NCBI GenBank assembly: GCA_963815455.1 | Contig: CAWFGO010000001.1 | Location: 96,001-160,000 of the forward strand | Direction of reading: 5' to 3' | Source: an uncultured Verrucomicrobiae bacterium | GTDB taxonomy: Bacteria > Verrucomicrobiota > Verrucomicrobiia > Chthoniobacterales > UBA10450 | Length of the DNA stretch: 64,000 nt | Program-made: the position numbers and the translations under genes | Shown here: piece by piece, positions 2 to 59,044 of the stretch | Numbering within the stretch: position 1 is the stretch's first letter | Layout of the letters: every line of letters starts with the position of its first letter | Notes under the pieces: model-generated | The model's database searches: none | Seen by the model: only the letters and a program-made list of their open reading frames with translations | Told to the model about the DNA's origin: nothing

Positions 2-1219
2 GCGCTCGAGACCAAATTCGGCGCGGTTTGGGTGCAGGGCGAAATTTCCAATTACAAGCTGCATCCGAGCGGACACCAATATTTCACGCTCAAAGACCAG
101 CGCGCGCAGATCGCTTGCGTAATTTTTCGCAACACCATGGCGCCGTTGCGAGAACCCCTTGTCGATGGAACGCAGGTCCAAGTCTACGGCAACGTTTCCG
201 TTTTCGAAGCGCGTGGGCAATACCAGATCAGCGTGCAAATCCTCCAGCCGCGGGGGCTCGGTTTGCTTCAGGCGAAATTTGAAGCGTTAAAACGCAAGCT
301 CGAGGCTGAAGGACTTTTCTCGCCGGAACGGAAACGTCCTTTGCCCAAGTTTCCGCGGCGAATTGGGATTGTTACTTCGCCAACCGGCGCCGCCATTCGC
401 GACATGCTCAATGTTCTGCAACGCCGCGCCCCGTGGCTTCAGATTTTGATCAATCCGGTCCGCGTGCAGGGAACCGGCGCGGCAGCGGAAATTGCCGTTG
501 CCATCCGCGAACTAGCCACGCCCAATGAAAAATTTGCCGCTGTCGATCTTATCGTGGTCGCCCGCGGCGGCGGCAGCATCGAGGACCTGTGGGAATTCAA
601 TGAAGAAATCGTGGCCCGGACGATTGCCAGCGTGACCGTGCCGATCGTTTCCGCGATCGGCCATGAAATTGATTTCACAATTGCCGATTTCGTGGCCGAT
701 CTGCGCGCGCCAACGCCTAGCGCGGCAGCCGAATTGATCGTGCCAGACGTTGTCGATCTTCGCCGGCACATTGACTCCAGCGCGCGCGGACTGGGACGCG
801 AGTTGCTCAATCGAATGCGCGACGCCCAGCAACGGCTCGATCACGCGCGCGAGACTTTGCGACGCTGCCTCGCCCACAGGATCGACAATTACAAACGCGG
901 CCTTCTCCACATCGTCGCGGCGTTACAGTCGCGCAGCCCGGCCCGCGAGTTGGTTCTTCGCCGCAATCGCCTGGTCGATCTTCGCCGGCGTTTCGTCGAG
1001 CTGCCCGCGCGGATTCTGGAAAATGCCAGGCACCGTTTCCGCGAGGCGGAAGGAATGCTGCGCGTCCTCGGCCCTGAAGCCACGCTGGGACGCGGCTTTT
1101 CAATCACGACCGACGAATCCGGCAAATTGATCCGGAGCGTGACGGCCGTTCGTCCGAAAATGAAAATTCGAACCCGCGTCAGTGACGGCGAATTCGGATC
1201 GACAATCAGCGAGCGCTAA
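2..1219 (+). CDS. xseA: Exodeoxyribonuclease VII large subunit (5' end outside window)
   Basis: WVQGEISN..SGHQYFTLKD OB-fold, IGIVTSPTGAAIRD, ARGGGSIEDLW, SAIGHEIDFTIADFVADLRAPTPSAAAE. Confidence 0.97.
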   Translation, partial: ALETKFGAVWVQGEISNYKLHPSGHQYFTLKDQRAQIACVIFRNTMAPLREPLVDGTQVQVYGNVSVFEARGQYQISVQILQPRGLGLLQAKFEALKRKLEAEGLFSPERKRPLPKFPRRIGIVTSPTGAAIRDMLNVLQRRAPWLQILINPVRVQGTGAAAEIAVAIRELATPNEKFAAVDLIVVARGGGSIEDLWEFNEEIVARTIASVTVPIVSAIGHEIDFTIADFVADLRAPTPSAAAELIVPDVVDLRRHIDSSARGLGRELLNRMRDAQQRLDHARETLRRCLAHRIDNYKRGLLHIVAALQSRSPARELVLRRNRLVDLRRRFVELPARILENARHRFREAEGMLRVLGPEATLGRGFSITTDESGKLIRSVTAVRPKMKIRTRVSDGEFGSTISER

Positions 1220-1225
1220 AGATTT

Positions 1226-1930
1226 CTACTGCGTCAGGGTCGAGTTCAGATCTTCGTCAACAGTCGTTTCTACCTGACCGGGCAGAACGCCCAGAAGCGA
1301 TTTCGCCGTAGCCTGCTGCCTTTTGTAATAAGTGCCGTCTCCGCCTTTGTGAAATATCACGAAGCCTTTGTCACCGAATGGAACGCCCGGCGCGGTCGAG
1401 ATCGCGATGGCTGGGTTGTCGCTGTAGGTAAAATTCCTTGTCGCCAGGAAGATGACATTTGCCCCATCGCTCTCCTTTACCCGGTAAATCTTGAACGCGC
1501 AGTTGCTGGTGCCATTAAAGGGGGGTTGCAATGAGCCCTGGCTGCTACTGCTGGTAGGAGCAATGTATCTTCCGTTCCAGGGAGTAATGCCGGCCGTCGC
1601 GAACACTTTCAGATCACCCGGCTTTAAATAATCGTTATCAACAAGCCGCTGAACAAATTGCGGAACGGTAGTGATTTGAACGGTCGAATCCGTGGAAGCG
1701 GCCAAATCTCCGGGCCAACCATACTTGGCATCACCCGTTTGTGTCCCGTCCGTCGCCATGGCAAACGTCGCCAGATGCACCTGACGAGCATTGCTCACCG
1801 CCTGCGTTAGCTGACCCCGGGTGAGCGCGCCAGTAATGGCCGGAAGCGCAAATGCCGCGATGGTGGCAATGATCGCGATGACGACCAGCATTTCAATCAA
1901 AGTAAAGGCAGCGCGGCTTCTTGTAGTCAT
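1226..1930 (-). CDS. Prepilin-type N-terminal cleavage/methylation domain protein (pilin/pseudopilin-like)
   Basis: MTTRSRAA-FTLIEMLVVIAIIATIAAFALP type IV N-methylation signal. Confidence 0.88.
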   Translation of the reverse strand: MTTRSRAAFTLIEMLVVIAIIATIAAFALPAITGALTRGQLTQAVSNARQVHLATFAMATDGTQTGDAKYGWPGDLAASTDSTVQITTVPQFVQRLVDNDYLKPGDLKVFATAGITPWNGRYIAPTSSSSQGSLQPPFNGTSNCAFKIYRVKESDGANVIFLATRNFTYSDNPAIAISTAPGVPFGDKGFVIFHKGGDGTYYKRQQATAKSLLGVLPGQVETTVDEDLNSTLTQ

Positions 1931-1978
1931 GAAGGCAAGTGAGATGGACCGCAAAAATCGCGGGAAATGCGTAAGAGG

Positions 1979-4181
1979 TCAAGCTTGGAACTTAAACGCA
2001 ACCGTTGCCAGCGGCGGCAACTGAATCAGGATCGACTGCTCGCGCCCCATCCATTGTCGATCCTCGCTCTGCACGCCGCCCAAATTTCCGACATTGCTCC
2101 CGCCGTAGGTCTCGGCATCGGTATTGATGATCTCGCGATAAAATCCGGCGCGCGGCACGCCGAGACGGTAATCATGGCGCACCATCGGGGTCGCATTCAC
2201 GACAAACACGATCGTCTCGCCGTCGCGCGATTTGCGCATAAACGAAACCACGCTGTTATCGGCGTCGTGAAAATCGATCCATTCAAAACCGTCGTAGCTG
2301 TCGTCCTGCTGCCACAAGGCCGGCTCGCTCTTGTAAGTGTAATTGAGATGTTGCACCAGCCTGCGCAGACCGTCGTGGGCCGGAAGATCGACCAGGTGCC
2401 AGTCGAGGCTCGTGTCGTGGTTCCATTCGCGCCACTGCCCGAATTCGCTCCCCATGAAGAGCAGCTTTTTGCCGGGCTGCCCGTACATCCATGCATAAAA
2501 CATTCGGAGATTTGCAAACTTCTGCCATTCGTCCCCCGGCATCTTCGACAACAGCGAGCGTTTTCCGTGGACGACTTCATCGTGACTCAGCACCAGGATG
2601 AAATTTTCCTGGAACGCGTAGAGCAAAAAGAACGTGATGTTACCGTGGTGAAAACGGCGGTAGATCGGATCGAGCGACATGTACTCTAGGAAATCGTGCA
2701 TCCAGCCCATGTTCCATTTGAGCCCGAACCCGAGCCCGCCGAGATAAGTCGGGCGCGACACACCCGGCCATGAGGTCGATTCCTCGGCGATGGTCATGAT
2801 GCCCGGAAAACGCTCGTAGCAGATTTCGTTGAAGCGCTTCAGAAAATAAATCGCGTCGAGATTTTCGCGGCCTCCGTAAACATTCGGAATCCATTGCCCG
2901 GGTTTTCTCGAATAATCGAGATACAGCATCGACGCCACCGCATCCACGCGCAGACCGTCGATGTGATATTTGTCGAGCCAGAAAAGCGCATTCGCGATGA
3001 GAAAATTGCGCACCTCGTTCCGGCCGAAATTAAAAATAAGCGTGCCCCAATCCTGATGTTCGCCCTGGCGCGGATCCATGTGCTCGTAAAGATCGGTCCC
3101 GTCGAACTCGGCCAGCGCGTGTGCGTCCTTCGGAAAATGGGCCGGTACCCAATCCATGATCACGCCGATGCCAGCCTGATGGCATTTGTCGATGAAATAG
3201 CGCAGCTCGTCGGGCGTGCCGAACCGGCTCGTGGGCGCGTAATAGTTTGTGACCTGATATCCCCACGAACCTTCGAAAGGATGTTCTGCAATCGGCAGCA
3301 ATTCAATGTGGGTGTAGCCCAGTTCGAGCACGTAGGGCAGGAGCGTGTCGGCAAGTTCGAGATAAGTCAGTTGTCGATTATCTTCATCAGCCCGGCGTCG
3401 CCACGATCCGAGATGGACTTCATAAATACTGAGCGGACTCCGCGGCCAATCTTTCGAGCGACGTTGCTCCATCCATTCTCCGTCGCTCCATTTGTAACGC
3501 TCAAGGTTGTAAACGAGGGACGCTGTCGATGTTCCGTGCTGGCCGAAAAATGCGAACGGATCGCTCTTGAGCAAAAGCGCGCCGGTCTGGGCGCGGATTT
3601 CGAATTTGTAGTGCGCGTTTTCTTTCACGCCGGGCAAAAATAATTCCCAGGTGCCGGCGCCGAGAAGTTTGCGCATCGGATTCACGCGACCGTCCCAGCC
3701 GTTGAAATCGCCCACCACGCTGACCCGCTGCGCATTCGGCGCCCAAACGCAAAAGTAAACGCCCGATTCGCCGCCGATGCTGCGCAGATGCGCGCCAAAT
3801 TTTTCGTAGAGCTGCCAGTGTTGTCCCTCGGCAAACAAATGCAGGTCCACTTCGCCCATGATCGGGCCATATTGATACGGATCCCGCATCACCAGCTCCG
3901 AACCGTCCCAGCCCGTCAGACGAATCCGATAATCGAGCTCGCGTCTTGCTCCCGGCACGTTCGCGCAAAAAAATCCGTCCCGATGAATCTTCTCCGCCGC
4001 AATGTGGCGACTCTCCATTCCGCACGATATCGATCTTCTTCGCATCGGGCCGAAAGACGCGAATGACCAGATCATCTCCTGCTCGATGCGGTCCGAGAAT
4101 CCGGAACGGATCGGAGTGCGTGCCGGACAAAAAACTGTTCAACTCGTCCGGCGGCAGGCTGGCGACTTCGAACGGCTTCAT
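1979..4181 (-). CDS. glgB: 1,4-alpha-glucan branching enzyme; frameshift near 4020 (probable sequencing error)
   Basis: N-terminus HSDPFRILGPH in ORF 3501..4181; WAPNAQRVSVVGDFN, YEVHLGSW, DGLRVDAVASMLY, LSHDEVVHGK in ORF 1979..4075. Confidence 0.95.
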
Positions 4182-4269: not shown

Positions 4270-5200
4270 GTGCAAACGACCACGCGCGATGCAGTTGATG
4301 AGTTGCTCGAGACTTACGGTGAGACCGGCGGCATAAATTATCTCGAAGCCGCGGCGCTCGCTCCCGTCGCGGCTCTCCATCGAAGCGGCTTGCGCAGAAT
4401 TGATGAGCCTGATGTTCCCGGGGTTCCGCAGCGAAGCGTTGGTCAGCTCGGAAGATCTGGCCGATACCACGCGCACCCGGGTAAGAAATTTGCGCGCCCG
4501 GCTCAAGACCGAAATGTGCCGGAGCCTGGGCAAGATTCCGCCGGACAAAGCAACCGAAGCGAAAGCCGAAGAACTCTTGAATGGGTTCATGGCCGAGCTG
4601 CCGTCGGTGCGTCGCATTCTCTGGACAGATATCGATGCCGCCTACGAAGGCGACCCGGCGGCGAAGAGTTACGAGGAAATCATTCTGGCGTATCCGGCGC
4701 TGGAAGCGATCGCGATTTATCGAATGGCCCATCTTCTCTACGACAAAGTGCCGCTGATTCCGCGGATCATGACCGAGTGGGCCCATAGCCGCACCGGGAT
4801 CGACATCCACCCCGGCGCAAAAGTTGGATCGCATTTTTTTATCGATCACGGCACCGGTGTCGTGATCGGCGAGACAACCGAGATCGGCTCGCGGGTCAAA
4901 CTTTATCATGGCGTCACCCTCGGCGCGCGCAGTTTTCAAAAGGATAATCACGGCAAAATCAAAAAGGGCGGGAAACGTCATCCCAAGGTCGAGGACGACG
5001 TGACGATTTATCCAAACTCGACCATGCTCGGCGGTGAGACCGTGATCGGCGCACGATCGACAATCGGCGGCAACGTTTTCCTGGTCCAAAGCGTGCCGCC
5101 GGATTCGCTCGCCTATTACGAAGAGAAACAGCTGCGAAGATCGTTCCCAAGCGGAGCCACAAGCCGCGGCACCACCGGCGCGACGAATTCAGCGCGATGA
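4270..5200 (+). CDS. cysE: Serine O-acetyltransferase; frameshift near 4360, C-terminal tail may also be shifted
   Basis: AAYEGDPAA, TGIDIHPGA, FFIDHGTGVVIGET, KRHP hexapeptide motifs; N-terminus VQTTTRDAVDELL in another frame from GTG 4270. Confidence 0.9.
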
Positions 5201-6486
5201 TCTATTTCGATTACAACGCCACGACGCCACTGTGCGATCCCGCCCGCGCGGCGATGCTCCCTTATTTGGATCGACATTTTGGAAATCCGTCGAGCGTTCA
5301 CGCGGCTGGACGCGAAGCGCGCGCGGCAATTGATGATGCGCGCGACAAACTCGCCGCGTTCATCGGCGCCAAATCTCATGAAATCATTTTCACCAGCGGC
5401 GGCACCGAATCGTGCAACCTCGCCGTGCTCGGTTTGGCCCGAACAAAGTGGCATCGGCATCCTGCCGATGGGACATCGCCTGGAAGGCGATGCCACATCA
5501 TCTCGAACAAGGCCGAACATCATGCGGTTCTCAACGCGATCGAGCACTTGGAAAAGCATGAAGGCTTCGAAGTGACGTGGCTCGGCGTTTCAGAAAACGG
5601 AATCGTCGATCTTAATCAGCTTGCGGAATCGATTCGTCCGGAGACGCGGCTGGTTTCGATCATGACCGCGAACAACGAGACGGGTGTGATTCAACCGATG
5701 CGTGAAATCTCGGCAATCTGCCGGGCCAAAGGGGTTCTGCTGCACAGCGACATGGTGCAATCATTCGGGAAGATCAGTCCCGTCATTCCGACCGAAGTGG
5801 AGGAATCCCGTGATGCCACCCTGAAGGTAATGCAACGGGGTCCTTCGACCCCGAAAGCTTTCGGGGCTCAGGATGACACTGATTTTCTTTCACTGGTCGA
5901 TGCCGCCAGTTTCGCCGCTCACAAATTTTACGGGCCGAAGGGCGCAGGATTTCTTTATCTGCGCAGTGGATTGTCGATCCAGCCAATGATGTTTGGCGGC
6001 GCGCATGAAAACCAACGACGGCCCGGGACGGAAAACGTTGCCGCGATCGCCGGGATGGCCGCGGCCGCGGAATGGACGTTGCGCGACCGCGAGACCGAAC
6101 AAGAACGCGAAGCGCAACTGCGCGATGATTTGTGGACACGCATTTCGAGCAACTTCTCCGCCGCAGTTCAAAACGGCGATACGGGACAACGGCTCTCCAA
6201 CACTCTCAACGTAAGTTTTCCCGGCATCGACTCGGAGACGATGCTAATGGCGCTCGATTTGGAAGGCGTTTGCGCATCAAGCGGATCGGCCTGCATGGTC
6301 GGCTCCGTCGTTGCCTCGCACGTCTTGCTCGCCATGGGTCTGCCGATGGAACGCGCCGGCTCAGCGGTTCGGTTCTCGCTCGGCAAATGGACGACCATGA
6401 ACGAAATCGATGGCGCCGGTAACGCGATTCAACGCATTTGCGACCGGCTAACGAAGGCGAAACAGAGCGAATATGCCGTTGTTTAG
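5197..6486 (+). CDS. Cysteine desulfurase (IscS/NifS family) with two in-frame palindromic insertions
   Basis: IYFDYNATTP, FGNPSS, FTSGGTES, ANNETG, AHKFYGPKG (PLP lysine), SSGSAC. Confidence 0.95.
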   Translation: MIYFDYNATTPLCDPARAAMLPYLDRHFGNPSSVHAAGREARAAIDDARDKLAAFIGAKSHEIIFTSGGTESCNLAVLGLARTKWHRHPADGTSPGRRCHIISNKAEHHAVLNAIEHLEKHEGFEVTWLGVSENGIVDLNQLAESIRPETRLVSIMTANNETGVIQPMREISAICRAKGVLLHSDMVQSFGKISPVIPTEVEESRDATLKVMQRGPSTPKAFGAQDDTDFLSLVDAASFAAHKFYGPKGAGFLYLRSGLSIQPMMFGGAHENQRRPGTENVAAIAGMAAAAEWTLRDRETEQEREAQLRDDLWTRISSNFSAAVQNGDTGQRLSNTLNVSFPGIDSETMLMALDLEGVCASSGSACMVGSVVASHVLLAMGLPMERAGSAVRFSLGKWTTMNEIDGAGNAIQRICDRLTKAKQSEYAVV

Positions 6487-9049: not shown

Positions 9050-9407
9050 ACCTGCGCGCTGAATCTCTCTTCTTCGCGTTTTGTGGCGACTCCAGGCGAA
9101 AGATGACTTCGCCTTCTTTCATCAGATCGAGTTTATCGCGAGCAATCGTTTCGAGGTAAACGGAGTCGGTCTTGAGCAAATTGACTTCGCGGGTCTGACG
9201 CGTGAGCAATGTTTTCTGCTCGTTGACCTGCGCTTGCAGATTGTCGATCTCAGCGCGGCTTTGCGTGAGTTTCTTATAGGGCGGCACGAACAAACTCACC
9301 ACTCCGAGCCAGACCGCCAAGAAAAGAAGGACGATGACGATCCGGTTCAGCCGTTGCCAAAGTGTGGCGTCGCGTCGGGCACGGAAATCTCCGTAGGTCT
9401 GGTCCAC
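9048..9407 (-). CDS. Septum formation initiator (FtsB/DivIC family)
   Basis: One TM helix, coiled coil, YLETIARDKLDLMKEGEVIF; directly downstream of eno. Confidence 0.85.
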   Translation of the reverse strand: MDQTYGDFRARRDATLWQRLNRIVIVLLFLAVWLGVVSLFVPPYKKLTQSRAEIDNLQAQVNEQKTLLTRQTREVNLLKTDSVYLETIARDKLDLMKEGEVIFRLESPQNAKKRDSARR

Positions 9408-9408
9408 G

Positions 9409-10740
<1,332 letters not shown>

Positions 10741-12321: not shown

Positions 12322-12912
12322 TCAATCTTTGCGACCAGTCCCAACACGTTGACGATAGAGTGCAGGATCGACAACGGCAGCCATTGCGTTGAGATCCATG
12401 TCCTGCTCAAGAAACCCGTTAATTTCTTTAGCTGCGCCGAGCGGTTCACGAAGAACCCGGCCATGCTCGATGCCGAGGAATCGGCAGGTGGGTTGCGTGG
12501 CCAGCCATTCTTCAATTTGGGCCAGCTGACTCGCGTAGACTTTCGCAAGCATGGCCTCGTCTGCGCTGGTTTTACCTTGCCGCTCCAGCATCACGCGCTG
12601 ACTGGCGAGAATTTCTTCCATGGGCCGCTTCATCAGGATAATGCGATATTGAAATCGGCCGTCGGTTGGAAGTTCACGTAGAAGAAGGTGAATGATCTTC
12701 ACGACCCGTCCACGCGCCTGGTCGAGCCAGAGTTTGTCGCTGCGCAGTCGTTTCACCGGCTCGAACTCAAAATAGCCACGCGGATTACTTTCATCGGGCG
12801 CGCGCAAGTCGTCCGTCAATGGAGGTAGTCCTCCCGCGACGAGCATTTGCATCATGAGCGAAGTGCCAGATCGCGGGAGTCCGCTCACGACGGTGATAAA
12901 ATCGCGCTGCAT
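12322..12912 (-). CDS. Sulfotransferase family protein
   Basis: VSGLPRSGTSLMMQML PAPS-binding loop; NPRGYFE. Confidence 0.88.
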   Translation of the reverse strand: MQRDFITVVSGLPRSGTSLMMQMLVAGGLPPLTDDLRAPDESNPRGYFEFEPVKRLRSDKLWLDQARGRVVKIIHLLLRELPTDGRFQYRIILMKRPMEEILASQRVMLERQGKTSADEAMLAKVYASQLAQIEEWLATQPTCRFLGIEHGRVLREPLGAAKEINGFLEQDMDLNAMAAVVDPALYRQRVGTGRKD

Positions 12913-16827: not shown

Positions 16828-17255
16828 AGCGGCGTCTGTTTCTCCTGTCGATCCTCGTCCTGGCCTTCAGCATTTCCGCGCGAGCCCAGACCGATACCGA
16901 AGTTGACGCCCGCAAAGCCGCGCTCGATCTGGCCGGGGCCTTCAGCAACGACGGATTCAAAATTCGCGACGGTCACTGGTGCGGCACGATCAAGCCGCAC
17001 GATCACGCTCTCATCGCCGTCAATCTTTACGCGGGAAATCAGTATTGGTTTACCGCCGGCGCGACCGATCTGGCCAAAAAGATTAGTGTGAACCTTTACG
17101 ACGAAACCGGAAAACAGGTCGTGACGGAAAGCTATAACTCAGGGGAAAAAGCAGCCGCCGGATATTCGCCCACCAGCAGTGGGCAGTATTACGTCTCGGT
17201 CGATCTGGTCGATGGCAAGGAAAGCAGTTTCTGCCTCGTCTATTCGTATAAGTAG
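16824..17255 (+). CDS. Hypothetical secreted protein
   Basis: Signal peptide MKRRLFLLSILVLAFSISARA; beta-rich body. Confidence 0.7.
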   Translation: MKRRLFLLSILVLAFSISARAQTDTEVDARKAALDLAGAFSNDGFKIRDGHWCGTIKPHDHALIAVNLYAGNQYWFTAGATDLAKKISVNLYDETGKQVVTESYNSGEKAAAGYSPTSSGQYYVSVDLVDGKESSFCLVYSYK

Positions 17256-17602: not shown

Positions 17603-18452
17603 TTCGGCTGTCGCCATCAACGGGCTGACGAAGGTTTTTCCGGTCCCGTTCCGTCGACACGGGATCGTGGCGGTGCGCGATCTCGATCTTCAGGTGAATC
17701 CCGGCGAAGTTTACGGCTTGCTCGGGCCTAACGGATCGGGTAAAAGCACTACGCTCAAGATCATTCTCGGCCTCGTTTCGCCGACGCGCGGCCGCACCGA
17801 AATTTTCGGCCGCAACAGCCGCTTGGTTGAGAGTCGCGACGCGGTTGGTTTCTTGCCGGAGAATCCGTATTTCTACAAATATCTCACCGGCGAAGAGACG
17901 CTGCGATTTTTCGGAAAACTTTGCGGGCTCAACGACTCACGCCTAAAGAACCGCATCGGCGAGTTGCTCGATCTCGCCGGTCTGACAAAAGCGCGAAGCC
18001 TGCGCCTGGGCACTTATTCGAAAGGAATGCTCCAACGCATCGGGCTGGCCCAGGCGTTGATCAACGAACCGAGACTGGTCGTCCTCGACGAACCGACGGC
18101 CGGTGTCGATCCCGCCGGCTCACGCGATATTTGCAATTTGATTCTCGATCTTAAACGGCGCGGAATCACCGTGCTGCTTTCGTCGCATTTGCTGGCGCAG
18201 GCCCAGGAAATTTGCGATCGCGTGGGCATTCTCTCAAATGGCATCCTGGTGCGCGAAGGCCGGCTGGACGAGCTGATCGCGATTGAAAACCAAACCGAGC
18301 TCGTTTTGAAAAATGCTTCCGGCGCGTTGCTGAACGAAATCGAAGCCCTCGCCGCCAAATCGAACGCCAAAGTGATCGAACAACGAAGATCGACAACGAC
18401 CTTGGAGCGTCTCTTTCTCGAAACGACGTCTGAACCGGGCGAACAAAAATGA
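17595..18452 (+). CDS. ABC transporter ATP-binding protein
   Basis: [25 protein letters not shown]. Confidence 0.95.
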
Positions 18453-20930: not shown

Positions 20931-20950
20931 GATCGACAAGTAATGGAACC

Positions 20951-42320: not shown

Positions 42321-43741
42321 TTGCCGCGCCCTCACTCGAAATTGCCGTGCTCGTTCTGGGCATGCTGCTCCTGATGTGGGAAGCGTTTGCCACCAAGACC
42401 GACAAGCGCGTTTTGGCCGTTACTGGAATTGTCAGCCTCACGCTCGTGCTGGCAGCGTCGTTCTTTTTGATTCCAAATATCGAACCCGGACAGATCAGCG
42501 GTTTCCGTGGCTTTTGCACCGTCGATCCGCTGTCGATCTTCTTTAAGCGATTTGCGCTGGTTACGACCATTTTCGTGCTGGTGATGATGATCGATTACGC
42601 GCCGGTCGTGCGCAGTTGGTTCCCCGGCGGGACTGCGCAAGCCGGCCTCGGTGAATTTTTCTCGATCCCGATCTTTACCTGCGCCGGACTGATGTATCTG
42701 GTCTCGGCCGTCGATTTCATTTTCATTTTCGTCGCGCTCGAGCTGGTCACGATCTCATTTTATGTCCTGGTCAGTTTCACTCGACGAAACCCGCTGACGC
42801 TCGAAGCCGGAGTGAAATATCTGGTGTTGAGCGCCCTCTCGACCGGATTTCTGGTTTACGGGATTACCTGGATCTTCGGAGCAACAGGCGAAACGAATCT
42901 GCAACGCATCGCCGAGGCTTTGGCGAACCCCGAAACCGAACATGGCGCCGCGCTCTTTGGCATGGTGCTCGTCCTCATCGCGCTCGGATTCAAAATCGCA
43001 GCGGTGCCATTCCAAATCTGGGTGCCCGATGTTTACCAGGGCGCGCCAACGCCGGTGACAGCGTTTCTTTCCGTCGGCTCGAAAGCGGCGGGGTTCGTCG
43101 TTTTGCTGCGCGTGTTGCAACCGTTCTCGATGATGCCGCAAATGCACCGGTTGATCGTCCTGCTCGCGTTCCTCACCCTGATTTACGGAAATCTGGCCGC
43201 GTTGCCCCAAACAAATTTGAAACGACTGCTGGCTTATTCGAGCATCGCTCACGCCGGCTATTTGCTCGTCGGCGTGGCCTGCTTCGACGGACCGGCAGTC
43301 GGGTTCTATCTCATCGCGTATCTAATTATGACGCTTTTGAGCTTTGCTGTGCTGGTCATCGTTTCGCAACAAACCGGCGAACAGATCGCCGATTTCAACG
43401 GCCTGGCCACGCGCTCGCCCTTTCTCGCCTTCGCCATGTTAACCGGAATGATCTCACTCGCCGGCGTGCCATTCACCGCCGGGTTTCTCGGAAAATTCTT
43501 TATCTTCTACGCCGCCATCGCGCACCGACAGATCGCGCTGGTGGTCGTTGGCGTGATCACGGTCGGCTGCGGATTTTATTATTATCTCAAAGTGATCCGC
43601 GCGATGTATTGGCAACCCGCACCGAACACCGACAAGATCCCAGTCAGCGCCCTGTCACGTTTCGCGATCAGCGCCTTGATTATCGCCACGATCTGGCTCG
43701 GCGTTTATCCGCAGCCGATCCTCGATGCGTTAAAGCGGTAG
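42317..43741 (+). CDS. nuoN: NADH-quinone oxidoreductase subunit N
   Basis: EAGVKY, FKIAAVPFQIWVPDVYQGAPTP, KRLLAYSSIAHAGY. Confidence 0.96.
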   Translation: MIAAPSLEIAVLVLGMLLLMWEAFATKTDKRVLAVTGIVSLTLVLAASFFLIPNIEPGQISGFRGFCTVDPLSIFFKRFALVTTIFVLVMMIDYAPVVRSWFPGGTAQAGLGEFFSIPIFTCAGLMYLVSAVDFIFIFVALELVTISFYVLVSFTRRNPLTLEAGVKYLVLSALSTGFLVYGITWIFGATGETNLQRIAEALANPETEHGAALFGMVLVLIALGFKIAAVPFQIWVPDVYQGAPTPVTAFLSVGSKAAGFVVLLRVLQPFSMMPQMHRLIVLLAFLTLIYGNLAALPQTNLKRLLAYSSIAHAGYLLVGVACFDGPAVGFYLIAYLIMTLLSFAVLVIVSQQTGEQIADFNGLATRSPFLAFAMLTGMISLAGVPFTAGFLGKFFIFYAAIAHRQIALVVVGVITVGCGFYYYLKVIRAMYWQPAPNTDKIPVSALSRFAISALIIATIWLGVYPQPILDALKR

Positions 43742-43817: not shown

Positions 43818-44429
43818 TCAGTCGCTCAGTTCGACGTTCCAGTAGGCAAGATCGACAAAGTGCCGCCAGCTTTCGTGTTGCGGCGCGGAGAACGTGACAT
43901 GCACGAATGGACGCCACTTCGGCCGCTTCGGTTTGCGAATGAGAATCATGTGCGCTTCCTGCGGAAGCCGGTTCCCCTTGCGGGTATTACAGGGGATACA
44001 CGAGCAAACCACATTTTCCCACGTCGTCGTCCCACCCCGGTCGCGCGGGACCACGTGATCAAGATTCAGATCGTTCCGATCGAACGTGTGACCGCAATAC
44101 TGGCAGGTGTTCTTGTCCCGTTCGAAAACGTTGTGCCGGGTAAATTTCACTTCCTTTTTCGGCAACCGATCGAAAAACAGCAGCACGATCACCCGCGGGA
44201 CCCGGATCTTGAACGAAATCGTCGGGACCAGCTCATGGGCGGGCGCGTTAGCCGAAAAATCGCGCCAGCTATCGAAATCGTGGGTAAGAAAATTGTTTGG
44301 CTCGTCCGACGAAACGACATGAGCGTGTCCCGCATAGACAAGCGAGAAAGCCCGCCGGGCAGAACAGATATTCACCGCCTGCCAGAGGCGATTCAGCACC
44401 AGAACCTGACTGTTCAACGAGGATTGCAA
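43818..44429 (-). CDS. HNH endonuclease family protein
   Basis: VLVLN, RDKNTCQYCG, LDHVVPRDRGG..WENVVCSCIPCNTRKGN. Confidence 0.92.
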   Translation of the reverse strand: MQSSLNSQVLVLNRLWQAVNICSARRAFSLVYAGHAHVVSSDEPNNFLTHDFDSWRDFSANAPAHELVPTISFKIRVPRVIVLLFFDRLPKKEVKFTRHNVFERDKNTCQYCGHTFDRNDLNLDHVVPRDRGGTTTWENVVCSCIPCNTRKGNRLPQEAHMILIRKPKRPKWRPFVHVTFSAPQHESWRHFVDLAYWNVELSD

Positions 44430-44653: not shown

Positions 44654-44702
44654 CCTACGAAATCTGACTTGTCGATCTTGTATTCGATCATAAGGTCGAA
44701 GC

Positions 44703-45048: not shown

Positions 45049-46091
45049 ATGACCGCGCAGTTTCCTAGCGAGCAGACGGAGTCCGGGGAATTTAAGCGTC
45101 AGGAAGACGCGTTTCGGGAATGGATCTCGAATGATGGATCAACTCCCTATCCCGCTACGGCTAATCGTTATCATCTTTACGTTTCGCTGGAGCCTGCCCG
45201 TGGGCGAGCCGGACGGTGATATTTCGGAAGCTGAAAGGACTCGAAGAAGCGATCGGCCTGACGATTGTCGATCCTGTTCGGGACAACAATGGCTGGGCGT
45301 TCCGCGATCCTGGAGGGGCGACCTCCGTGTCGTCCTCCTGCCCGGACGTGCCGAAGCACGTCCCTCCGTCGACTGATCCGGTTAACGGGTTTCATTATCT
45401 GAGCGAAGCCTACGCGGCGACCGATCCGAATTACGACGGGCGCGTCACTGTGCCGGTACTGTGGGACAAGGAAACAAGAAAGATCGTTAACAATTGCGAG
45501 GACGATATCTGTCGCATGTTCAACGACGCGTTCAACGAGTTTGCCCGGAACAAAGACGTCGATCTTTTTCCGGATGAGATTGAGGCGGAGCACATGAAGC
45601 TTTGCGAATTCATTCACGACAACGTAAACAACGGCGTTTATCGGGCCGGGTTCGCCACTCGCCAGCGAGCTTACGAGATTTCCTGCCGAAAACTCTTTGA
45701 GGCACTCGACGAACTGGAACAACGCCTGTCGAAAAGCCGCTATTTGTTTGCGAATCCCGGTGGAGAGAGCGGGAAGCTGTCAGCTTCCCCTACAGTTGGG
45801 AATCGAATTGTCGAAGCGGACTGGCGATTATTTTGCACGCTGGTCCGGTTCGACGTCGTCTATCACGGGCATTTCAAATGTAACATTCGCCGCATCATCG
45901 ATTACCCGAACCTGCAGGGTTATCTGATGGATTTGTATCAGCGGCCTGGGATCGCGCAGACCGTGAACTTCGATCACATCAAGCGTCATTATTATATGAC
46001 GCACACCGAGATTAATCCGACGCGCATTGTTCCGCTTGGTCCGGCACTCGACCTCACGACGCCGCATGGGCGGGAGGCCATGAAGAATTGA
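45049..46091 (+). CDS. Glutathionyl-hydroquinone reductase (YqjG-like GST); frameshift near 45190; two in-frame REP insertions
   Basis: RYHLYVSL-(ACPWASR), RVTVPVLWDK, VNNGVYRAGFA, EADWRLF..RFD, HIKRHYY. Confidence 0.92.
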
Positions 46092-46381: not shown

Positions 46382-47200
46382 GTGAGACGGACTGCCTCAA
46401 CCCTGTCGATCCTGCTGGCCTTGAGCGCGTTCGCGTTTGCCGGGCCCGAAAGCTATTCCGGTAAGGAAATGAAGCAGGTAGCGCGCTACGAAACGCCCTC
46501 CTGTCCGAACTGGACCGGGTTCTACATTGGCGGCTTTGGCGGATACAAGTTTGGAGTGATCGATCCAACCCTTCGGTTGGGTGGATTCTGGGAAGACTCA
46601 CAGCCGGACTTGGAGACGTTAAAGTCCCGCGCCGACGACAACCTCGACACCAGCGGCGCGGAGCTGGGAGGATTGATCGGTTACAATCATCAGTGGAACA
46701 ACTGGGTGCTGGGTCTGGAGGCCGCCGGCAGTTATCTCTGGTTGCGAGATTCGCACGGGGACGGTGATTTCTTCTCATCAAACGGGAACCAGTTCTTCAC
46801 TGAGACTTCATTCAAGACGCACTACCTGTTCACGGTCGGACCACGCATTGGTTATGCCTTATGCAAGTGGTTGCCATACGTCACCGGGGGGCTGGCGGTG
46901 GGAGACCTGGATTTCCACCAGCAATTTCACGCGCCGGACTTCTTTCCCGAAATAGCCGGCGGCACAAAAAGCGAGACGAATGCCGGGTGGTTTGTTGGCG
47001 GCGGGCTGCAATATGCCCTAACCGATCGGTTTCGTGAGGGACAGAATTTTCCCGCCTGGAGCGTCAGAGTCCAATATCAATACGTCGATCTTGGATCGAC
47101 GAGTTTCGATCACGATTCGGTGCCCTCCAGTTACCCGAGCGGCAGCAAAGTGGAATTGCGGGAGGACAACGCTTCGTTCGCCATCATCTACGGTTTTTAA
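46382..47200 (+). CDS. Outer membrane beta-barrel protein (Omp25/31-like)
   Basis: Signal peptide, WTGFYIGG, GGLIGYNHQW, terminal Phe. Confidence 0.88.
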   Translation: MRRTASTLSILLALSAFAFAGPESYSGKEMKQVARYETPSCPNWTGFYIGGFGGYKFGVIDPTLRLGGFWEDSQPDLETLKSRADDNLDTSGAELGGLIGYNHQWNNWVLGLEAAGSYLWLRDSHGDGDFFSSNGNQFFTETSFKTHYLFTVGPRIGYALCKWLPYVTGGLAVGDLDFHQQFHAPDFFPEIAGGTKSETNAGWFVGGGLQYALTDRFREGQNFPAWSVRVQYQYVDLGSTSFDHDSVPSSYPSGSKVELREDNASFAIIYGF

Positions 47201-48895: not shown

Positions 48896-49320
48896 TTGCA
48901 CTGCTCGACATTAACATGCTCATTGCGCTCTTCGATGCGGCTCATGTGCATCATGGCGCCGCCCACGAATGGATGACGAAACACCGCTCGTTCGGTTGGG
49001 CAACCTGTCCGATTACCGAGAACGGGTGCGCTCGAGTGATGTCGCAGCCTAACTATCCGGGCCATCTTCCGGTGGCGGAGATTGTGCGCCGGGTTGCGGC
49101 GGCAACGTCGGAACGCGACCACAGGTTCTGGGAGGATTCGATTTCGTTGTGCGATCCGAAGCGGTTCGAACCAGGTCTAATACTGACGTCGCGAAATCTA
49201 ACCGATGTTTATTTGCTCGCGTTAGCGGTTGAAAAAGGGGGCCGGCTTGTCACTTTCGATCGCGCCATACCCTCGCGGGCGATACGAGGAATCAAAGATC
49301 GACATCTCCTTGTATTGTAG
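48892..49320 (+). CDS. VapC PIN-domain toxin
   Basis: LLDINMLIAL, TCPITENG, TDVYLLALA..LVTFD. Confidence 0.92.
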   Translation: MIALLDINMLIALFDAAHVHHGAAHEWMTKHRSFGWATCPITENGCARVMSQPNYPGHLPVAEIVRRVAAATSERDHRFWEDSISLCDPKRFEPGLILTSRNLTDVYLLALAVEKGGRLVTFDRAIPSRAIRGIKDRHLLVL

Positions 49321-49511: not shown

Positions 49512-52500
49512 ATGCATCTCCAATCGCTCGAACTTTTCGGCTTCAAATCGTTCGCCGATAAAACCACCTTCAATTTCCACGAGGGCGTGACGGCCATTGT
49601 GGGGCCTAACGGCTGCGGCAAATCCAATGTGCTCGACGCCATCAAGTGGGTCCTGGGCGAGCAATCCGCCAAATCGCTTCGTGGCGGCGAAATGGCCGAC
49701 GTCATTTTCAACGGCACCGACTCGCGTAAACCGGTCGGGTTTGCCGAAGTCTCCCTCACCTTTTCGGATTGCGCGACGGAACTCGATGTCGATTGGAACG
49801 AAGTGCGGGTGACGCGCCGCGTTTTTCGCGACGGGAATTCGGAGTATTTCCTCAACAAAACGTCCTGCCGTTTGCGCGATATCCAAAGTCTGTTTGCCGA
49901 TACCGGCGTGGGCCGGGCCGCCTACTCGATGATGGAGCAAGGCAAGATCGACATGATCCTGAGCTCGCGTCCGGAAGATCGCCGCGCCATTTTCGAAGAA
50001 GCGGCCGGGATTACGAAGTATAAAACGCAAAAGCGCGAAGCGCTGCGCAAACTGGAAGCGACCGAGGCGAACCTGTTACGCGTGGGTGATATCATTAAGG
50101 AAGTGAAACGCCAGATCGGGTCGCTTCAACGCCAGGCTGGCAAGGCGCGACGTTACCAGGCGTTGCACGCCGATTTGCGGGCGCTCGACACCCACCATTC
50201 TCGCAAGCAACTCGAATCGCTCGAGACCGAGTTGGGAAAATGTCGAGCCGAGATCGAGCGAATCGGCGAATCGGAAACCGCGACGCGCCAGAAGATCGAC
50301 AGCGGCGAAACCGAACTCGGCGAACAACGGCGCGCTCTCGATGAGATCGATACGAAGATCGCCGATGGCCGGACCGAGTTGCAGCGTTTACAAAGCGAAA
50401 TCGGCACGCACCACAGCCGGATCGAATTCAATCGGCAACGGGCCAGTGAACTAACCGAGCTGATCGAGCGCTCCCGAAAAGACATCGCGGGGGCGGAAGC
50501 GAAGCGGACGCAACAACATAAGGACATCGAGCAGGCCAACGCGCTCATTGAAAAAACCAGCACCCTGGTTCAAGCCAGGGAAGCCGAATTGGCCGAGCTG
50601 ACTGCTTCCATTGCCGAATTGCGGACTGAGCGTTCCACGCACGAAACAGAATTGGAAAAACTCCGGGCGTCGTTCTCGAAAAACGAGAGCCGAACGGAGG
50701 AGCTGGAAGACGAGCTTTCCGGAATCACGATTCGCCGGGAAACAACCCAGGAGAATCAGCGCGATCTCGATGCTGCAATTTCCGAGGCGAACAAAGCTCG
50801 AACCAAAGTTGAACAAGAGATTGCCGCCGCGCGCACGGCGACCGCGAGCGCGTTAAAGAACGTCGATCTTCTGAAGACCGACGCGCAGACGCGGGAAGAA
50901 ACTTTGCAGCAACATCGACAGCTTTTGGCCGAAGCCGAGAAGAGCCTCTTGGCGATGGAGCGGGCGCTGGCCGAAAAGGAATCGCGCCTGGAAATCCTGC
51001 GCCAGCTGAATGAAGAAGGCGCAGGACTCGCCCAGGGTTCGCAGGCCGTGCTCAAAGGTCTCGATGATCCGGCCCGGATCCAATCCGCGCTGGCCGGCCC
51101 ATTTGTTTCGAAGCTCGATGTCGATCCTAAGTTCATCGGCGCGATTGAGGCGGCGCTGGGCCGAAGTCTGCAGGCGATCGTTTTGGAAGATCCGGCGCTC
51201 GCGCCGGAAATAATTTCGACATTGACCAGGAAGAATCTGGGACAGGCCGCGTTGATCATTCCGAGACTCGGCAGTTCATCGGCGAAGAAACACGGAAAAC
51301 TTCCGGGAAACTCGCTCGGCTGGGCCATCGACAAAGTGAGGGCTCCGGAATCGCTCGCTCCGCTGGTTGCCCAATTGCTTCACAACGTCGCACTTTTCGA
51401 CAATCTCGATCAGGCCCTGGCCGCGCGCCAAAAACAGAGGCGAGTTCGGCGCAGCCACACTTGCCGGCGAATTTATTTCGATGGAGGGCGTTGTCTTCGG
51501 TGGCAGCAGCGAAACTGCGTCCGATTCGTTGCTCGAGCGCAAATCGCGCATCTCGATCCTGACCGCGGAACATTCGGTCCTGGGCAAGCAACGGGACACT
51601 CTGCGAGAAAAACGAGACGAAGAAACCGCGCGGCTGGAAAAAGCAACGCGCGAATTCGAAAGGGTCCGCGCTCAATTCGAATCGGCTGGGCGTGAGCAAT
51701 CGGTTTCCGAAAGCCGGATTCAATTTCTGGAGCGCGAACGGGAAGAAGTCCAACGCAAGATCGACAATCTGCGCTCGGAAGATGCAACGCTCCGGCAACA
51801 ACTGGACGCGGCCGACGAACGGATTACAGCGCTGCAGGCGGAATTGGAAACGGAACGGGACGCTCTTGCCGAGAAACAGTCGGAACAATCCAGGGCAGAG
51901 GCCGCACGCAACGACCTATCAAAACGCGAAGAGGAAGCCGGTGAGAAGTTGAATGAGCTTCGCCTGGCGCTGGCAACAGAACGTCAACGACAGGACAACC
52001 TGCTGGCGCAACGCCAGCCGATGACCGCCCGCGAAACGGAGCTGGCCGAGACCATCGCCGCTCGCAGGGCCGAGATTGCCGATTTTGAAAAGCGACTGGC
52101 CGCGCAATCGAACGAATCGAGGGACGCGGAAACGGCGATTGAGAAGCAGACCGTGCAACGCGCCGCGTTGGAGCAATCGATTGTTGCGCTGGCGGATCAA
52201 CGTTCAAAACAGCTGGCCGCGACGAATGAAATCGAGTCGGGCCTGCGGAATGTTCGCAACAGCTTGAACGAGCTGCACGATCTGCGTGCGCAACAGCAAG
52301 TCCGCGAATCACAGCTGGGAATGCAGATCGACAATCTGCTCGAACACATCGAGCGGCGGTATCAGCTCAATCTGCGCGAGTTCGCGCTGGATCAGCCGGC
52401 GTTCGAGAAGACGTTGCGAGTGCAGCTGAAACGGCGCGGTGGATCGGCCGCTCCGTCGGACGATGTTAATAATGGCGGCGAAGCCGCGTTAAACTCAGCA

Positions 52501-53433: not shown

Positions 53434-53494
53434 AATCGATATGCATCCTAAAAAAATTTTGCGCACGGTTGTCGATCCTGCGTAAAATCACTGG

Positions 53495-56992: not shown

Positions 56993-58249
56993 ATGCCTCA
57001 AGTTCCAATCACCATGCCGCAGCTCGGCGAATCGATGGCCGAAGCGACGATTGTTTCAATCAAAGTGAAGCCGGGCGAGAAAGTCGCGGCCGATCAGGAG
57101 ATCATTGAAGTCGAAACTGACAAAGCGATCATGGGCGTGACCACGCCGTGCCCGGGGGAGATTGCGAAGATCGACGCAGAAGTGAAAGGCGTTTATCCGG
57201 TTGGCGCCGTGCTCGGATACGTGGAAGCGAGCGAAGCAGATGCGGCGCGATTTCAAAAACGCGCACCCGAACCGCCAAAGGGCGAAGTATCGATGGAAAT
57301 TCCCGGTCGCGAAGAGGAGCCTGCTGGCGCGGGTAATGGCAGCAGCTCCCATTTTCAAGTGGACGATACCGCTTTGCCGCAAGTCGCAGTGGGGTCGGAT
57401 GTCGATCAACGCGGCGGTTTGCCGGTTCCGGCGAGCGCCAAAGGCGCGGGATATCTTTCGCCGCGGGTCCGAGCCCGCATGGCCGAGTTGCAATTGACCC
57501 AGGCCGATCTTGCCAGCATCGCTGGCACAGGCTCGGCCGGCCGGGTTACGATCAAGGACCTGGAGACTTTTCTCAGTTCGATCGAATCGCAACCAGCGGA
57601 AAAACCGAGCGCGATTCGCACCGGCGTTGCCGATGCGATGCGACGCAGCTGGGCCCGGCCACTGGCAACGGTGGGCGTTTCGGTTTGTTTGGATCCGGTG
57701 CTGCAGGACCGCGCGCAACGCGACCCGAAACCCGGCCCGGCGTTGTATGCGGTGCGCGCGCTAGCCCTCGCACTTGCCGAGCAACCGAACGCCGCCGCTC
57801 GATTGATCGGCGGCCGGGCGATCAGCTCACAATCGATCGACATCGGAGTCGCTGTCGAAGCTGGGGAAGGAATCATGGTCCCGGTGATTCGTAACGCCGA
57901 CAAAACTTCGCTGGCCGACATGATGAATCGTTACACCGAGCTTGTCGATCTTGCGCGACGCCGGCGCCTGACGAGCGAGATGACTTCGGGCGGAATTGCT
58001 TCCGTTTCCAATTTTGGAACGTTCGGCCTGGACTGGGGCACACCGATTCCTCTCCCGGATCAGACGATGATCCTTGGACTCGGCGCAGGAAAGAAAACCC
58101 CGGTGTGGGACGAATCGAAAAATGAATTCGTTCCGAAAACCGAAGCGCAAGTCACATTAAGCTTCGATCATCGTAGCCTCGATGGCGGCGGCGCCGGACG
58201 CTTGCTCAAGCGGGTGATCGAGTTGCTGGAAGAGCCGGAGACGCTCTGA
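56993..58249 (+). CDS. 2-oxoacid dehydrogenase E2 (dihydrolipoamide acyltransferase)
   Basis: MPQLGES, EVETDKA lipoyl lysine, GTGSAGRVT, SFDHR. Confidence 0.93.
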   Translation: MPQVPITMPQLGESMAEATIVSIKVKPGEKVAADQEIIEVETDKAIMGVTTPCPGEIAKIDAEVKGVYPVGAVLGYVEASEADAARFQKRAPEPPKGEVSMEIPGREEEPAGAGNGSSSHFQVDDTALPQVAVGSDVDQRGGLPVPASAKGAGYLSPRVRARMAELQLTQADLASIAGTGSAGRVTIKDLETFLSSIESQPAEKPSAIRTGVADAMRRSWARPLATVGVSVCLDPVLQDRAQRDPKPGPALYAVRALALALAEQPNAAARLIGGRAISSQSIDIGVAVEAGEGIMVPVIRNADKTSLADMMNRYTELVDLARRRRLTSEMTSGGIASVSNFGTFGLDWGTPIPLPDQTMILGLGAGKKTPVWDESKNEFVPKTEAQVTLSFDHRSLDGGGAGRLLKRVIELLEEPETL

Positions 58250-58251
58250 AT

Positions 58252-58382
58252 CTGGGGAGCGCAGGCTGTCGGCCTGCAGTCGGCGGCAGCTTGCCGACGA
58301 CACGTAATTATTGCAACACCATGACTGACAAGCTTTTCGGCAAGCTGCCGAAAACAACAGGCTAGCAGCCTGTGCTCCCCAG
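58252..58382. repeat. CTGGGGAGC multi-hairpin element
   Basis: Same terminal and internal IRs as 53289..53433. Confidence 0.9.
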
Positions 58383-58489
58383 ACTCGCTTGCCTCGCGCA
58401 AGTTGAGAACTATCTTCTGGACAGCACGAGCGGTGATCGAGTTAGCAGTAAGAGATTCTTCGACTTCGCTCGGAATGACAAAGGACGTT

Positions 58490-59044
58490 ATGCACGAGAA
58501 CACTGAATTTACTTTGAGTCGCGATTGCGAGGTAATCCTGATCCCGAGCGGGACGAAATTTACGGTACCGGCCGGAACCAAAGGAGTAATTACGCAGACG
58601 CTTGGTGGAAGTTATACCATCGCTACTTCGTATGGTCTCTCACGCGTCGCCGAGAAGGACATCGACGCGCTCGGAATCGAGAAACCGGTGGCCAAGACCG
58701 AATCGAAGGCCGCGGCCACGACTAATGGCGAAGTCTCCGAGGACGATGTTTGGAATCAATTGCGCCAGTGCTTCGATCCGGAAATTCCGGTTAACATTGT
58801 CGATCTTGGCCTGGTTTACGATTGCCGGTTGATCAAGAAAGATGGCGGCGGCACGCGGGTGGAAGTGAAAATGACTCTCACCGCGCCCGGGTGCGGAATG
58901 GGACCGGCCATTGCCCACGACGCGCAAAGCAAGATTTTGAGCATCGACGGCATCGATGAAGCCGATGTGCAGCTGGTCTGGGACCCGCCGTGGAATCAAA
59001 GCATGATCAGCGAACCGGGCCGGATGAAGCTGGGAATGATTTGA
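58490..59044 (+). CDS. sufT: Fe-S cluster assembly protein SufT (DUF59)
   Basis: ITQTLGGSYT, DPEIPVNIVDLGLVY, MTLTAPGCGMG, VWDPPW. Confidence 0.9.
   Translation: MHENTEFTLSRDCEVILIPSGTKFTVPAGTKGVITQTLGGSYTIATSYGLSRVAEKDIDALGIEKPVAKTESKAAATTNGEVSEDDVWNQLRQCFDPEIPVNIVDLGLVYDCRLIKKDGGGTRVEVKMTLTAPGCGMGPAIAHDAQSKILSIDGIDEADVQLVWDPPWNQSMISEPGRMKLGMI

Follow-up and report, generated by a model that had tools for sequence, protein, structure and literature searches.

To our knowledge, sequence-specific words that mark self DNA are established in print for two bacterial families only, with the cyanobacterial octamer HIP1 (highly iterated palindrome 1, GCGATCGC) as a recent candidate. Uptake sequences are significantly evenly spaced and have no orientation bias; the Haemophilus-type uptake signal sequence (USS) has many copies inside genes and grows by point changes under molecular drive, about 35% of the DNA uptake sequence (DUS) copies of Neisseria gonorrhoeae are in genes, and known regulator sites cluster around a loose consensus (all from an excerpt of PMC1939737). 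HIP1, for a long time without an assigned function, was first argued to be kept by selection for a chromosomal role, its sites being conserved between genomes (excerpt of PMC5861425), and is now itself proposed as an uptake or transformation signal in a study that compared gene families with word density by phylogenetic regression (excerpt of PMC13756078). Here an eight-base word, GATCGACA, is described from a 64,000-nucleotide stretch (the window) of the genome of an uncultured Verrucomicrobiae bacterium. The word joins the small class of hyper-abundant self words (DUS, USS, HIP1), and the case lies in a different phylum from the established families. Its favoured interpretation, held at a probability of roughly 40%, is that of a lineage-specific self DNA word maintained by a Haemophilus-type, uptake-linked drive.

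The window comprises bases 96,001-160,000 of contig C1 of the genome under study (G000; 3,619,036 bases in 7 contigs, 56-57% G+C, rated 90% complete), and it carries housekeeping genes of an ordinary kind (glgB, enolase, a release factor, the nuo operon, smc, pyruvate-dehydrogenase-type genes, rplI and dnaB). Genome-wide, GATCGACA is the top 8-mer by raw count, with 2,535 copies in 3.62 Mb (0.70 per kb, about one per 1.4 kb), and also the most over-represented 8-mer under a third-order Markov model, which expects 401. A preliminary description of the window had taken the 11-mer AAGATCGACAA as the unit. This 11-mer (ending in ACAA) occurs 499 times in the genome, its sister AAGATCGACAT (ending in ACAT) 489 times and the 10-mer AAGATCGACA 1,124 times, and the unit is now replaced by the 8-base core with degenerate flanks. 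The flanks are C at -3, A at -2 (69%), A or G at -1, A or T at +8, C or T at +9 and G at +10, with no preference further out, which gives C-A-R-core-W-Y-G as the consensus of the full unit. A single mismatch inside ATCG drops the 10-mer count from 1,124 to 3-21. The core differs from its own reverse complement and is non-palindromic.

Genes were called with a crude model of open reading frames (ORFs) and codon usage, which yielded 2,890 genes on 81% of the DNA; split genes were seen, so the counts of the word per reading frame are approximate. HerA, Ddl, MurG, Mur ligases and a POT transporter each appear as two adjacent ORFs (C1:543834-545373; C2:323559-324347; others), and these splits of conserved genes fit single-base assembly indels. 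The 2,535 cores divide into 1,004 sense, 1,176 antisense, 338 intergenic and 17 across a gene boundary, 87% being in genes. All six frames are used, the two preferred being xxG-ATC-GAC-Axx with 655 copies and the opposite-strand xxT-GTC-GAT-Cxx with 786. In genes the core is found 2,182 times, against 365 ± 16 in ten within-gene synonymous codon shuffles and 176 ± 17 in ten codon-order shuffles; the 10-mer is found 979 times in genes, against 85 and 10.6, respectively. The excess persists under both codon-preserving nulls, the check by which the preliminary description had proposed to judge it. The tripeptide VDL is found 759 times, where residue frequencies predict 341, and is spelled GTCGATCTT (GTC-GAT-CTT) 483 times where 21.7 are expected, CTT being just 14% of Leu codons. 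RST is spelled AGATCGACA (AGA-TCG-ACA) 55 times against 0.5 expected, AGA being 4% of Arg codons. KID occurs 489 times against 131 expected, and 368 of the 489 are spelled AAG-ATC-GAC, codons with a relative use of 0.47, 0.60 and 0.45. The 338 intergenic cores compare with 20-142 expected from Markov models of orders 0-5 trained on intergenic DNA, and the flank logo is identical in 288 fully intergenic and 2,148 fully coding copies. Together, the codon nulls, the tripeptide spellings, the intergenic excess and the shared logo indicate that the word is maintained at the DNA level, in agreement with the earlier proposal that it is selected as DNA rather than as protein. The word bends both codon choice and protein sequence.

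The window contains 57 cores, 29 on the plus strand and 28 on the minus strand, nine of which fall between genes or on a gene boundary. The 15 exact copies of AAGATCGACAA first reported, eight on the plus and seven on the minus strand, are present at their reported coordinates (0.04 expected from 100 dinucleotide shuffles, at most 1 in any shuffle), whereas the total number of copies had been put too low. All 13 positions named as near matches hold the core, with offsets of 1-2 bases because the starts of the 11-mer had been given. The reading frames reported earlier (KIDN, VVDL, RST, DRQ and LSI) were all observed at window sites, as were the copies at the stop of the 20202-20930 gene, immediately before nuoD (29799-29806), across the nuoH start (35506-35513) and in the spacer at 44670-44677. 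The sites are as follows, with the peptide read across each where it is coding.

541..548, minus: core GATCGACA, in gene, AVDL
750..760, minus: exact AAGATCGACAA, VVDL
880..887, plus: core, RIDN
1197..1204, plus: core, GSTI
2055..2062, minus: core, glgB-like gene, DRQW
4798..4805, plus: core, GIDI
5055..5062, plus: core, RSTI
5269..5276, plus: core, DRHF
5972..5979, minus: core, LSIQ
9242..9249, minus: core, intergenic
10412..10422, minus: exact AAGATCGACAA, enolase gene, KIDN
12366..12373, plus: core, VVDP (gene strand)
16846..16853, minus: core, LSIL
18104..18111, minus: core, GVDP
18386..18396, plus: exact AAGATCGACAA, RSTT, rare AGA codon
18750..18757, minus: core, MSIF
20929..20939, plus: exact AAGATCGACAA, overlaps the stop of the 20202-20930 gene
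21227..21234, minus: core, DVDH
21853..21860, minus: core, LSIH
25480..25490, plus: exact AAGATCGACAA, KIDN
25903..25910, minus: core, RIDR
26032..26039, minus: core, WIDK
26761..26771, minus: exact AAGATCGACAA, intergenic
27754..27764, plus: exact AAGATCGACAA, LSIL (gene strand)
29799..29806, minus: core, 3 bases upstream of the nuoD start
30444..30451, plus: core, nuoD, EIDK
30477..30484, minus: core, nuoD, FVDR
30714..30721, plus: core, nuoD, VIDR
31244..31251, plus: core, KIDM
31769..31779, plus: exact AAGATCGACAA, nuoE/F fusion gene, DRQR
33167..33174, plus: core, GSTI
33188..33195, minus: core, MSID
34870..34877, plus: core, nuoG, LIDI
35506..35513, plus: core, last base is the first base of the nuoH start codon
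36064..36071, plus: core, nuoH, QIDN
39094..39101, plus: core, nuoL, WIDI
39507..39514, minus: core, nuoL, LSIL
41121..41131, plus: exact AAGATCGACAA, nuoM, KIDN
42181..42191, minus: exact AAGATCGACAA, nuoM, LVDL
42531..42538, minus: core, nuoN, LSIF
43848..43858, plus: exact AAGATCGACAA, HNH endonuclease gene, FVDL (gene strand)
44669..44679, minus: exact AAGATCGACAA, intergenic
45266..45273, minus: core, IVDP
46404..46411, minus: core, LSIL
49297..49304, plus: core, DRHL
49946..49953, plus: core, smc, KIDM
50294..50301, plus: core, smc, KIDS
51119..51126, minus: core, smc, DVDP
51757..51767, plus: exact AAGATCGACAA, outside the gene calls of this analysis
52326..52333, plus: core, outside the gene calls of this analysis
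53470..53477, minus: core, intergenic
57400..57407, minus: core, E2 acyltransferase gene, DVDQ
57835..57842, plus: core, SIDI
57942..57952, minus: exact AAGATCGACAA, LVDL
58797..58807, minus: exact AAGATCGACAA, IVDL
60627..60634, plus: core, 5' end of rplI, KIDM as called, whose ATG may be the true start
62283..62290, plus: core, dnaB, RSTS, rare AGA codon

The HNH endonuclease gene in this list (window 43821-44429, minus strand) is a stand-alone gene of 203 residues directly after nuoN; it has one exact 11-mer inside and another in its downstream spacer.

The orientation of the word was examined on single-replichore contigs. The two strands carry 249/276 copies on C2 (negative skew throughout, genes mostly on the minus strand) and 98/114 on C5 (positive skew, genes mostly on the plus strand). 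The four orientation pairs of successive copies are near equal (644, 631, 628 and 626), and 47 word-rich genomes of the family sum to 28,672 forward and 28,237 reverse copies. The word is thus dispersed and strand-unbiased, unlike Chi and KOPS (FtsK-orienting polar sequences), and the replichore test bears out the preliminary description on this point. Density per kb of spacer is 0.60 in divergent, 0.51 in tandem and 0.50 in convergent spacers and is flat along genes, and a promoter or terminator role was rejected on these grounds. An inverted-pair structure was likewise rejected, close pairs numbering 19/18/18/13 over the four orientations.

The spacing of the copies is not random at short range. 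There are 26, 127 and 444 pairs at separations below 30, 100 and 300 bp, compared with 56, 185 and 519 after random displacement (jitter) of each copy by ±1.5 kb; the depletion below 300 bp has a z of -4 to -5, and none of 300 jitter nulls was as low. Distances of 500-1,000 bp are in excess. The even spacing is limited to short range, and large gaps are over-represented, with 15 gaps above 10 kb against 2.3 expected. No periodicity of 5-200 kb was detected on the 1.7-Mb contig C1 by a simple fast Fourier transform (FFT) with 500 permutations, a simpler test than that published for HIP1; its top power was 7,057, the 95th percentile of permuted maxima being 10,389. Nine word-free gap regions were annotated. 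Among their contents are an IS110 transposase and integrase island; a toxin-antitoxin block of HigB, insertion sequence and PIN genes in which the 16S gene also lies; a glycosyltransferase/methyltransferase cluster of low GC; a further low-GC block, carrying HerA and a Dcm-Vsr pair; 40 kb of ABC-transporter and glycogen genes; PAS kinases; and a cadherin/dockerin gene of 3,465 residues. The word is missing from islands, a depletion for which the preliminary description had proposed to look.

The closest matches of a cyclopropane-fatty-acid-synthase-like (CMAS) protein of the window (74-78% identity) come from metagenome-assembled genomes (MAGs) labelled Candidatus Udaeobacter sp., Verrucomicrobia bacterium and Chthoniobacterales bacterium, and the organism is, judged by its sequence, a Chthoniobacterales bacterium near Ca. 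Udaeobacter. The seven named MAG loci contain 27 cores in 40.7 kb, against 25 in 491 kb of distant loci. Of 24 further family genomes, nine have the 10-mer in abundance (522-2,607 copies), three are intermediate and 12 have 12-62 copies; 16 genomes from other families of the order have 0-19 copies each. A survey of 201 family genomes in 36 genera found 47 genomes at 100 or more copies per Mb and 13 genera with a median at or above that density. The densest genus has 1,238-1,607 copies per Mb and two large genera span 54-771 and 20-348 per Mb, so that density varies more than 10-fold inside single genera. These tables include genomes marked unpublished (G003, G008, G015, G151, G171 and G188), two of them among the 47 rich ones (G015 and G188), and no conclusion depends on them alone.

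Conservation of individual sites was followed in 100-kb samples aligned to the genome under study at 72.5-74.2% nucleotide identity. In the rich genome G007, 42 of 70 aligned sites are intact, compared with 13.5% of all 8-base windows unchanged, and 42 of the 106 sites of G007 itself are common to both genomes. Poor genomes keep few sites: 2 of 54 in G002, 5 of 58 in G012 and 7 of 67 in G021 (14 of 179 in total), with backgrounds of 10.5-11%. Smaller loci pooled from seven rich genomes retain 48 of 79 sites (21 of 26 in G011 alone), and those from eight poor genomes 7 of 51, the backgrounds in this comparison being 14-25%. Ortholog conservation, which the preliminary description had suggested examining, is therefore above background in word-rich relatives only. 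Because sites are held only where the word is abundant, protein constraint is excluded; the pattern of retention fits either continuing drive or selection.

The poor genomes G002, G012 and G021 carry a second word, GCCTAACGA, with 24-30 copies of the 8-mer per 100 kb against about 1.3 expected (samples L127-L141). GATCGACA and GCCTAACGA are unrelated and are not point variants of each other. GCCTAACGA is densest in sister genera that lack GATCGACA, peaks at 531 per Mb in G004, 502 in G020, 475 in G005 and 445 in G006, and is lowest where GATCGACA is dense, with 56 per Mb (204 copies) in the genome under study, 63 in G001 and 59 in G016. Other families have 2-14 per Mb, under the reversed-word control; GCCTAACGA is specific to the family. 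Of its sites, 6/12 and 6/13 are common to G002 and G012 (background 9.4%), and just 2/16 are shared with the genome under study. The flank preference of G007 is slightly different (...ACAT). A candidate dialect word in G017, the enriched GATCGTAG, was rejected since it belongs to a repeat element. That element, of about 24 nt, is present in 22 copies in the 100-kb sample of G017 (L207-L211) and is conserved along its entire length.

A tree of RpoC with 32 rows, from which G003 and nine genomes of other families were left out for want of loci, recovered the family at 100/100 support. Within it, a 13-genome clade (99/97) comprises nine rich genomes alongside G010, G012, G022 and G023, which are poor or intermediate. 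Outside this main rich clade, the very rich G007 and the poor G005 group together (96/92), and joining G007 to the rich clade was not rejected by the approximately unbiased (AU) test (p = 0.21). The word may have been gained once and lost several times, or gained several times.

These data establish that the word is abundant, maintained at the DNA level, neutral to strand, spaced non-randomly at short range, absent from islands, conserved in position and restricted to a clade. All its sequence-level properties match those reported for uptake sequences, with the Haemophilus type as the closest. Like the Pasteurellaceae USS, GATCGACA has a short asymmetric core with softer flanks and thousands of copies, is mostly in genes in a few tolerated frames at a cost in codon and peptide choice, shows no orientation bias, is spaced more regularly at short range than random placement would give, is lacking from newly acquired DNA and arises through point changes at orthologous positions rather than by insertion. 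It differs from the USS in being an unrelated word in another phylum, Verrucomicrobiota, in the >10-fold spread of its density within genera, in the second unrelated word present in the family of its carriers, and in that ComEA was not found in the genome under study or in most rich relatives. With the Neisseriaceae DUS it shares hyper-abundance, non-palindromy, strand neutrality and clade restriction, and related genera differ in word or flanks, which may recall the DUS dialects. In contrast to the DUS, which is read by the minor pilin ComP, no ComP-type domain scored over the cut-off here; GATCGACA shows neither a surplus of close inverted pairs nor a bias to convergent spacers, 87% of its copies are in genes compared with the 35% or so given for N. 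gonorrhoeae in the excerpt of PMC1939737, and GATCGACA and GCCTAACGA are not point variants of one word.

In the favoured scenario, the word would be read as double-stranded DNA, and the uptake machinery may, we infer, be its reader. In one part of the Udaeobacter family, point changes would have introduced it into the core genome of long residence, where it is kept. A DNA-import machinery (type IV pilus, ComEC and DprA) would prefer fragments bearing the word, imported kin DNA would replace the resident allele by recombination, and word-bearing alleles would spread by molecular drive, at a cost in codon and even amino-acid choice. An uptake bias of one word per fragment predicts the repulsion below 300 bp, which a purely mutational process does not. 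The data hint that soil relatives of Udaeobacter may exchange DNA with their own kind. More tentatively, and with some doubt, the family may run its own uptake system independent of those of Neisseria and Haemophilus, with at least two unrelated words, GATCGACA and GCCTAACGA, that replace each other among genera; a new kind of receptor and periplasmic DNA binder would then be probable, given that ComP is lacking and that most word-rich genomes have no ComEA.

The genome encodes full-length ComEC (736 residues) and DprA, together with type IV pilus parts that include PilC, three secretins, and three ATPases of PilB type and four that are PilT-like. Several pilin-like proteins are also encoded, at C1:1001763-1002958, C1:1445935-1446875, C1:79966-80595, C1:386638-387261 and C3:512575-513054. 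The competence genes named in the preliminary description are thus present in part, ComEC, DprA and pilus parts having been found, and ComEA and a ComP-type domain not. At C2:344931-349948 (L232:2931-7948), an MglB/MglA-like pair, made up of a Roadblock/LC7 protein and a small Ras-like GTPase, adjoins a PilB-type ATPase, with a GspH-like pseudopilin nearby; this arrangement suggests a polarity-controlled pilus activity.

Several observations weigh against uptake. ComEA was not found in the 90%-complete genome with Pfam HHH_3, TIGR00426 or tblastn using the ComEA-like protein of G007; the upstream neighbour of the G007 gene does match, at 85%. Nor was ComEA found in 6 of 10 word-rich relatives. 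ComEA-like proteins exceed the cut-off in 3 of 10 rich genomes (G007, G015 and G024) compared with 8 of the 14 other family genomes, and the near-complete rich genomes G013 and G018 gave no ComEA-like hits. As a correlate of the word ComEA was rejected, there being no positive association across family genomes. Its absence weighs against uptake, not decisively; Helicobacter pylori is not known to have ComEA and uses a different periplasmic DNA binder instead. ComEC is present in 39 of 41 genomes of the order and does not track the word, and being near-universal it was set aside as an uninformative correlate; in G007, the word-richest relative of the first sample, a stop or frameshift splits the gene. 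The two pieces (G007:C9:459447-460251) have one TGA inside, and the break is either genuine or due to an assembly indel. A search for a ComP-type receptor found none, the best match to PF16732 (ComP_DUS) reaching 19.5 bits against a cut-off of 27.3. None of the genes tested individually tracks word density, and literature searches found no report of natural transformation centred on Verrucomicrobia. Selection for an intracellular role, the case first made for HIP1 (excerpt of PMC5861425), would account just as well for all of the sequence statistics.

Such a HIP1-like word, selected for nucleoid or chromosome organisation or for a methylation-linked function and read by a cytoplasmic DNA-binding protein or an orphan methyltransferase, appears rather unlikely as the explanation. 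Both words are hyper-abundant octamers containing GATCG, located in genes and spacers, with sites conserved between genomes (for HIP1, excerpt of PMC5861425), and most rich genomes are without ComEA. An orphan beta-class N6/N4 DNA methyltransferase with an SPPY motif is, in addition, kept among housekeeping genes in the family; in the genome under study it is encoded at C1:1049485-1050381 (minus strand; L148:4485-5381) between a GT87 glycosyltransferase gene and thiG. The enzyme is found, however, in 22 of 24 family genomes at 57-85% identity, rich or poor alike, and was rejected as a determinant because it is present regardless of the word and its identity to the copy studied here does not separate rich from poor genomes. 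GATCGACA is also no palindrome, no Dam-type (D12 class) GATC methyltransferase was found in the genome, and the FFT revealed no long-range periodicity, a quasi-periodic distribution (10-90 kb) being a mark of HIP1. HIP1 is now itself a proposed uptake or transformation signal (excerpt of PMC13756078). Biased repair or gene conversion, in which a sequence-specific mismatch or nicking enzyme would turn near-matches into the word as an accumulating by-product with no DNA import, is improbable. It would agree with the somewhat raised counts of one-mismatch forms (e.g. 497, 275 and 148 copies, where 10-mers as a whole average 7.8), and any drive would account for sites that cost rare codons; a purely mutational process nevertheless predicts Poisson spacing rather than repulsion below 300 bp, and we know of no repair enzyme with an asymmetric specificity of 8-13 bp. 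The genome does have a Vsr mismatch endonuclease and C5 cytosine methyltransferase (Dcm) pair at C1:536943-538216 (L236), beside a 718-residue HATPase protein. This pair sits in a word-free 13.9-kb gap of low GC (52.8%), was not found in G001 of the same genus and has distant matches (32-37%) in 3 of 24 family genomes, and therefore cannot be the cause; the locus is probably a recently acquired restriction-modification-type island, essentially strain-specific, and was rejected as a driver. The methylation-linked role raised in the preliminary description accordingly gained no support from the genes tested, namely the Dam-type, orphan and Dcm-Vsr enzymes.

Binding sites of an abundant global regulator or nucleoid-associated protein would share the asymmetric 8-13 bp logo that is identical in coding and non-coding DNA. 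This explanation is quite improbable, given that equal densities in divergent, tandem and convergent spacers and the flat profile along genes leave no promoter link, and that some 2,500 near-exact sites with a very sharp mismatch profile are unlike the loose regulator consensus described in the excerpt of PMC1939737. A polar chromosome-maintenance motif such as Chi, KOPS or AIMS (architecture imparting sequences) would likewise be an over-represented, lineage-specific 8-mer missing from foreign DNA, yet the orientation of GATCGACA does not follow replication in either the single-replichore contigs or the 47 rich genomes; the strand counts refute it, and it is highly improbable. The least credible explanation, with a virtually negligible likelihood, is that the word follows from codon usage and frequent peptides (KID, VDL) or is a small mobile repeat, such as a repetitive extragenic palindrome (REP) or a miniature inverted-repeat transposable element (MITE). 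AAG, ATC and GAC are common codons and most copies are in genes, but the excess outlasts both codon-preserving nulls, the rare codons CTT and AGA are used, all six frames and the spacers are occupied, and word-poor relatives with the same proteins lack the word. Unlike that of a REP or MITE, the similarity ends about 3 bases either side of the core and 87% of copies are genic. The shuffles, the tripeptide codon counts and the extent of the flanks refute both the codon or dicodon artefact and the mobile repeat.

Full-text literature searches, which did not cover supplementary files, found nothing on the word itself, nor on Udaeobacter or Verrucomicrobia in connection with uptake sequences, competence or natural transformation. 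The lineage is among the most abundant soil bacteria. A further clear case would show self words to be general in bacterial genome evolution rather than a quirk of a few host-associated bacteria, and an independent uptake system, if real, would amount to natural transformation limited to kin in a soil lineage that ranks among the most abundant and is still uncultured. In practical terms, the word is a sharp metagenome marker for DNA of the clade, its absence flags foreign islands within carrier genomes, and it predicts which DNA to offer when transformation of these so far intractable organisms is attempted. The switch between two words in one family and the >10-fold spread of density within genera constitute a natural experiment for finding the reader protein.

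Other repeated sequences and one further gene were recorded. The commonest long repeat of the genome is a family containing GCTCAGGATGAC, with 135 copies of the 12-mer and up to 64 copies of 16-mers. The 8-mer CGGCTACA has 306 copies against 84 expected, equal on both strands. The CMAS-like gene of the window (59064-60404, plus strand) has relatives of 45-60% identity scattered in Chloroflexota, Acidobacteriota, Gemmatimonadota and others; its distribution is patchy, and it was possibly transferred.

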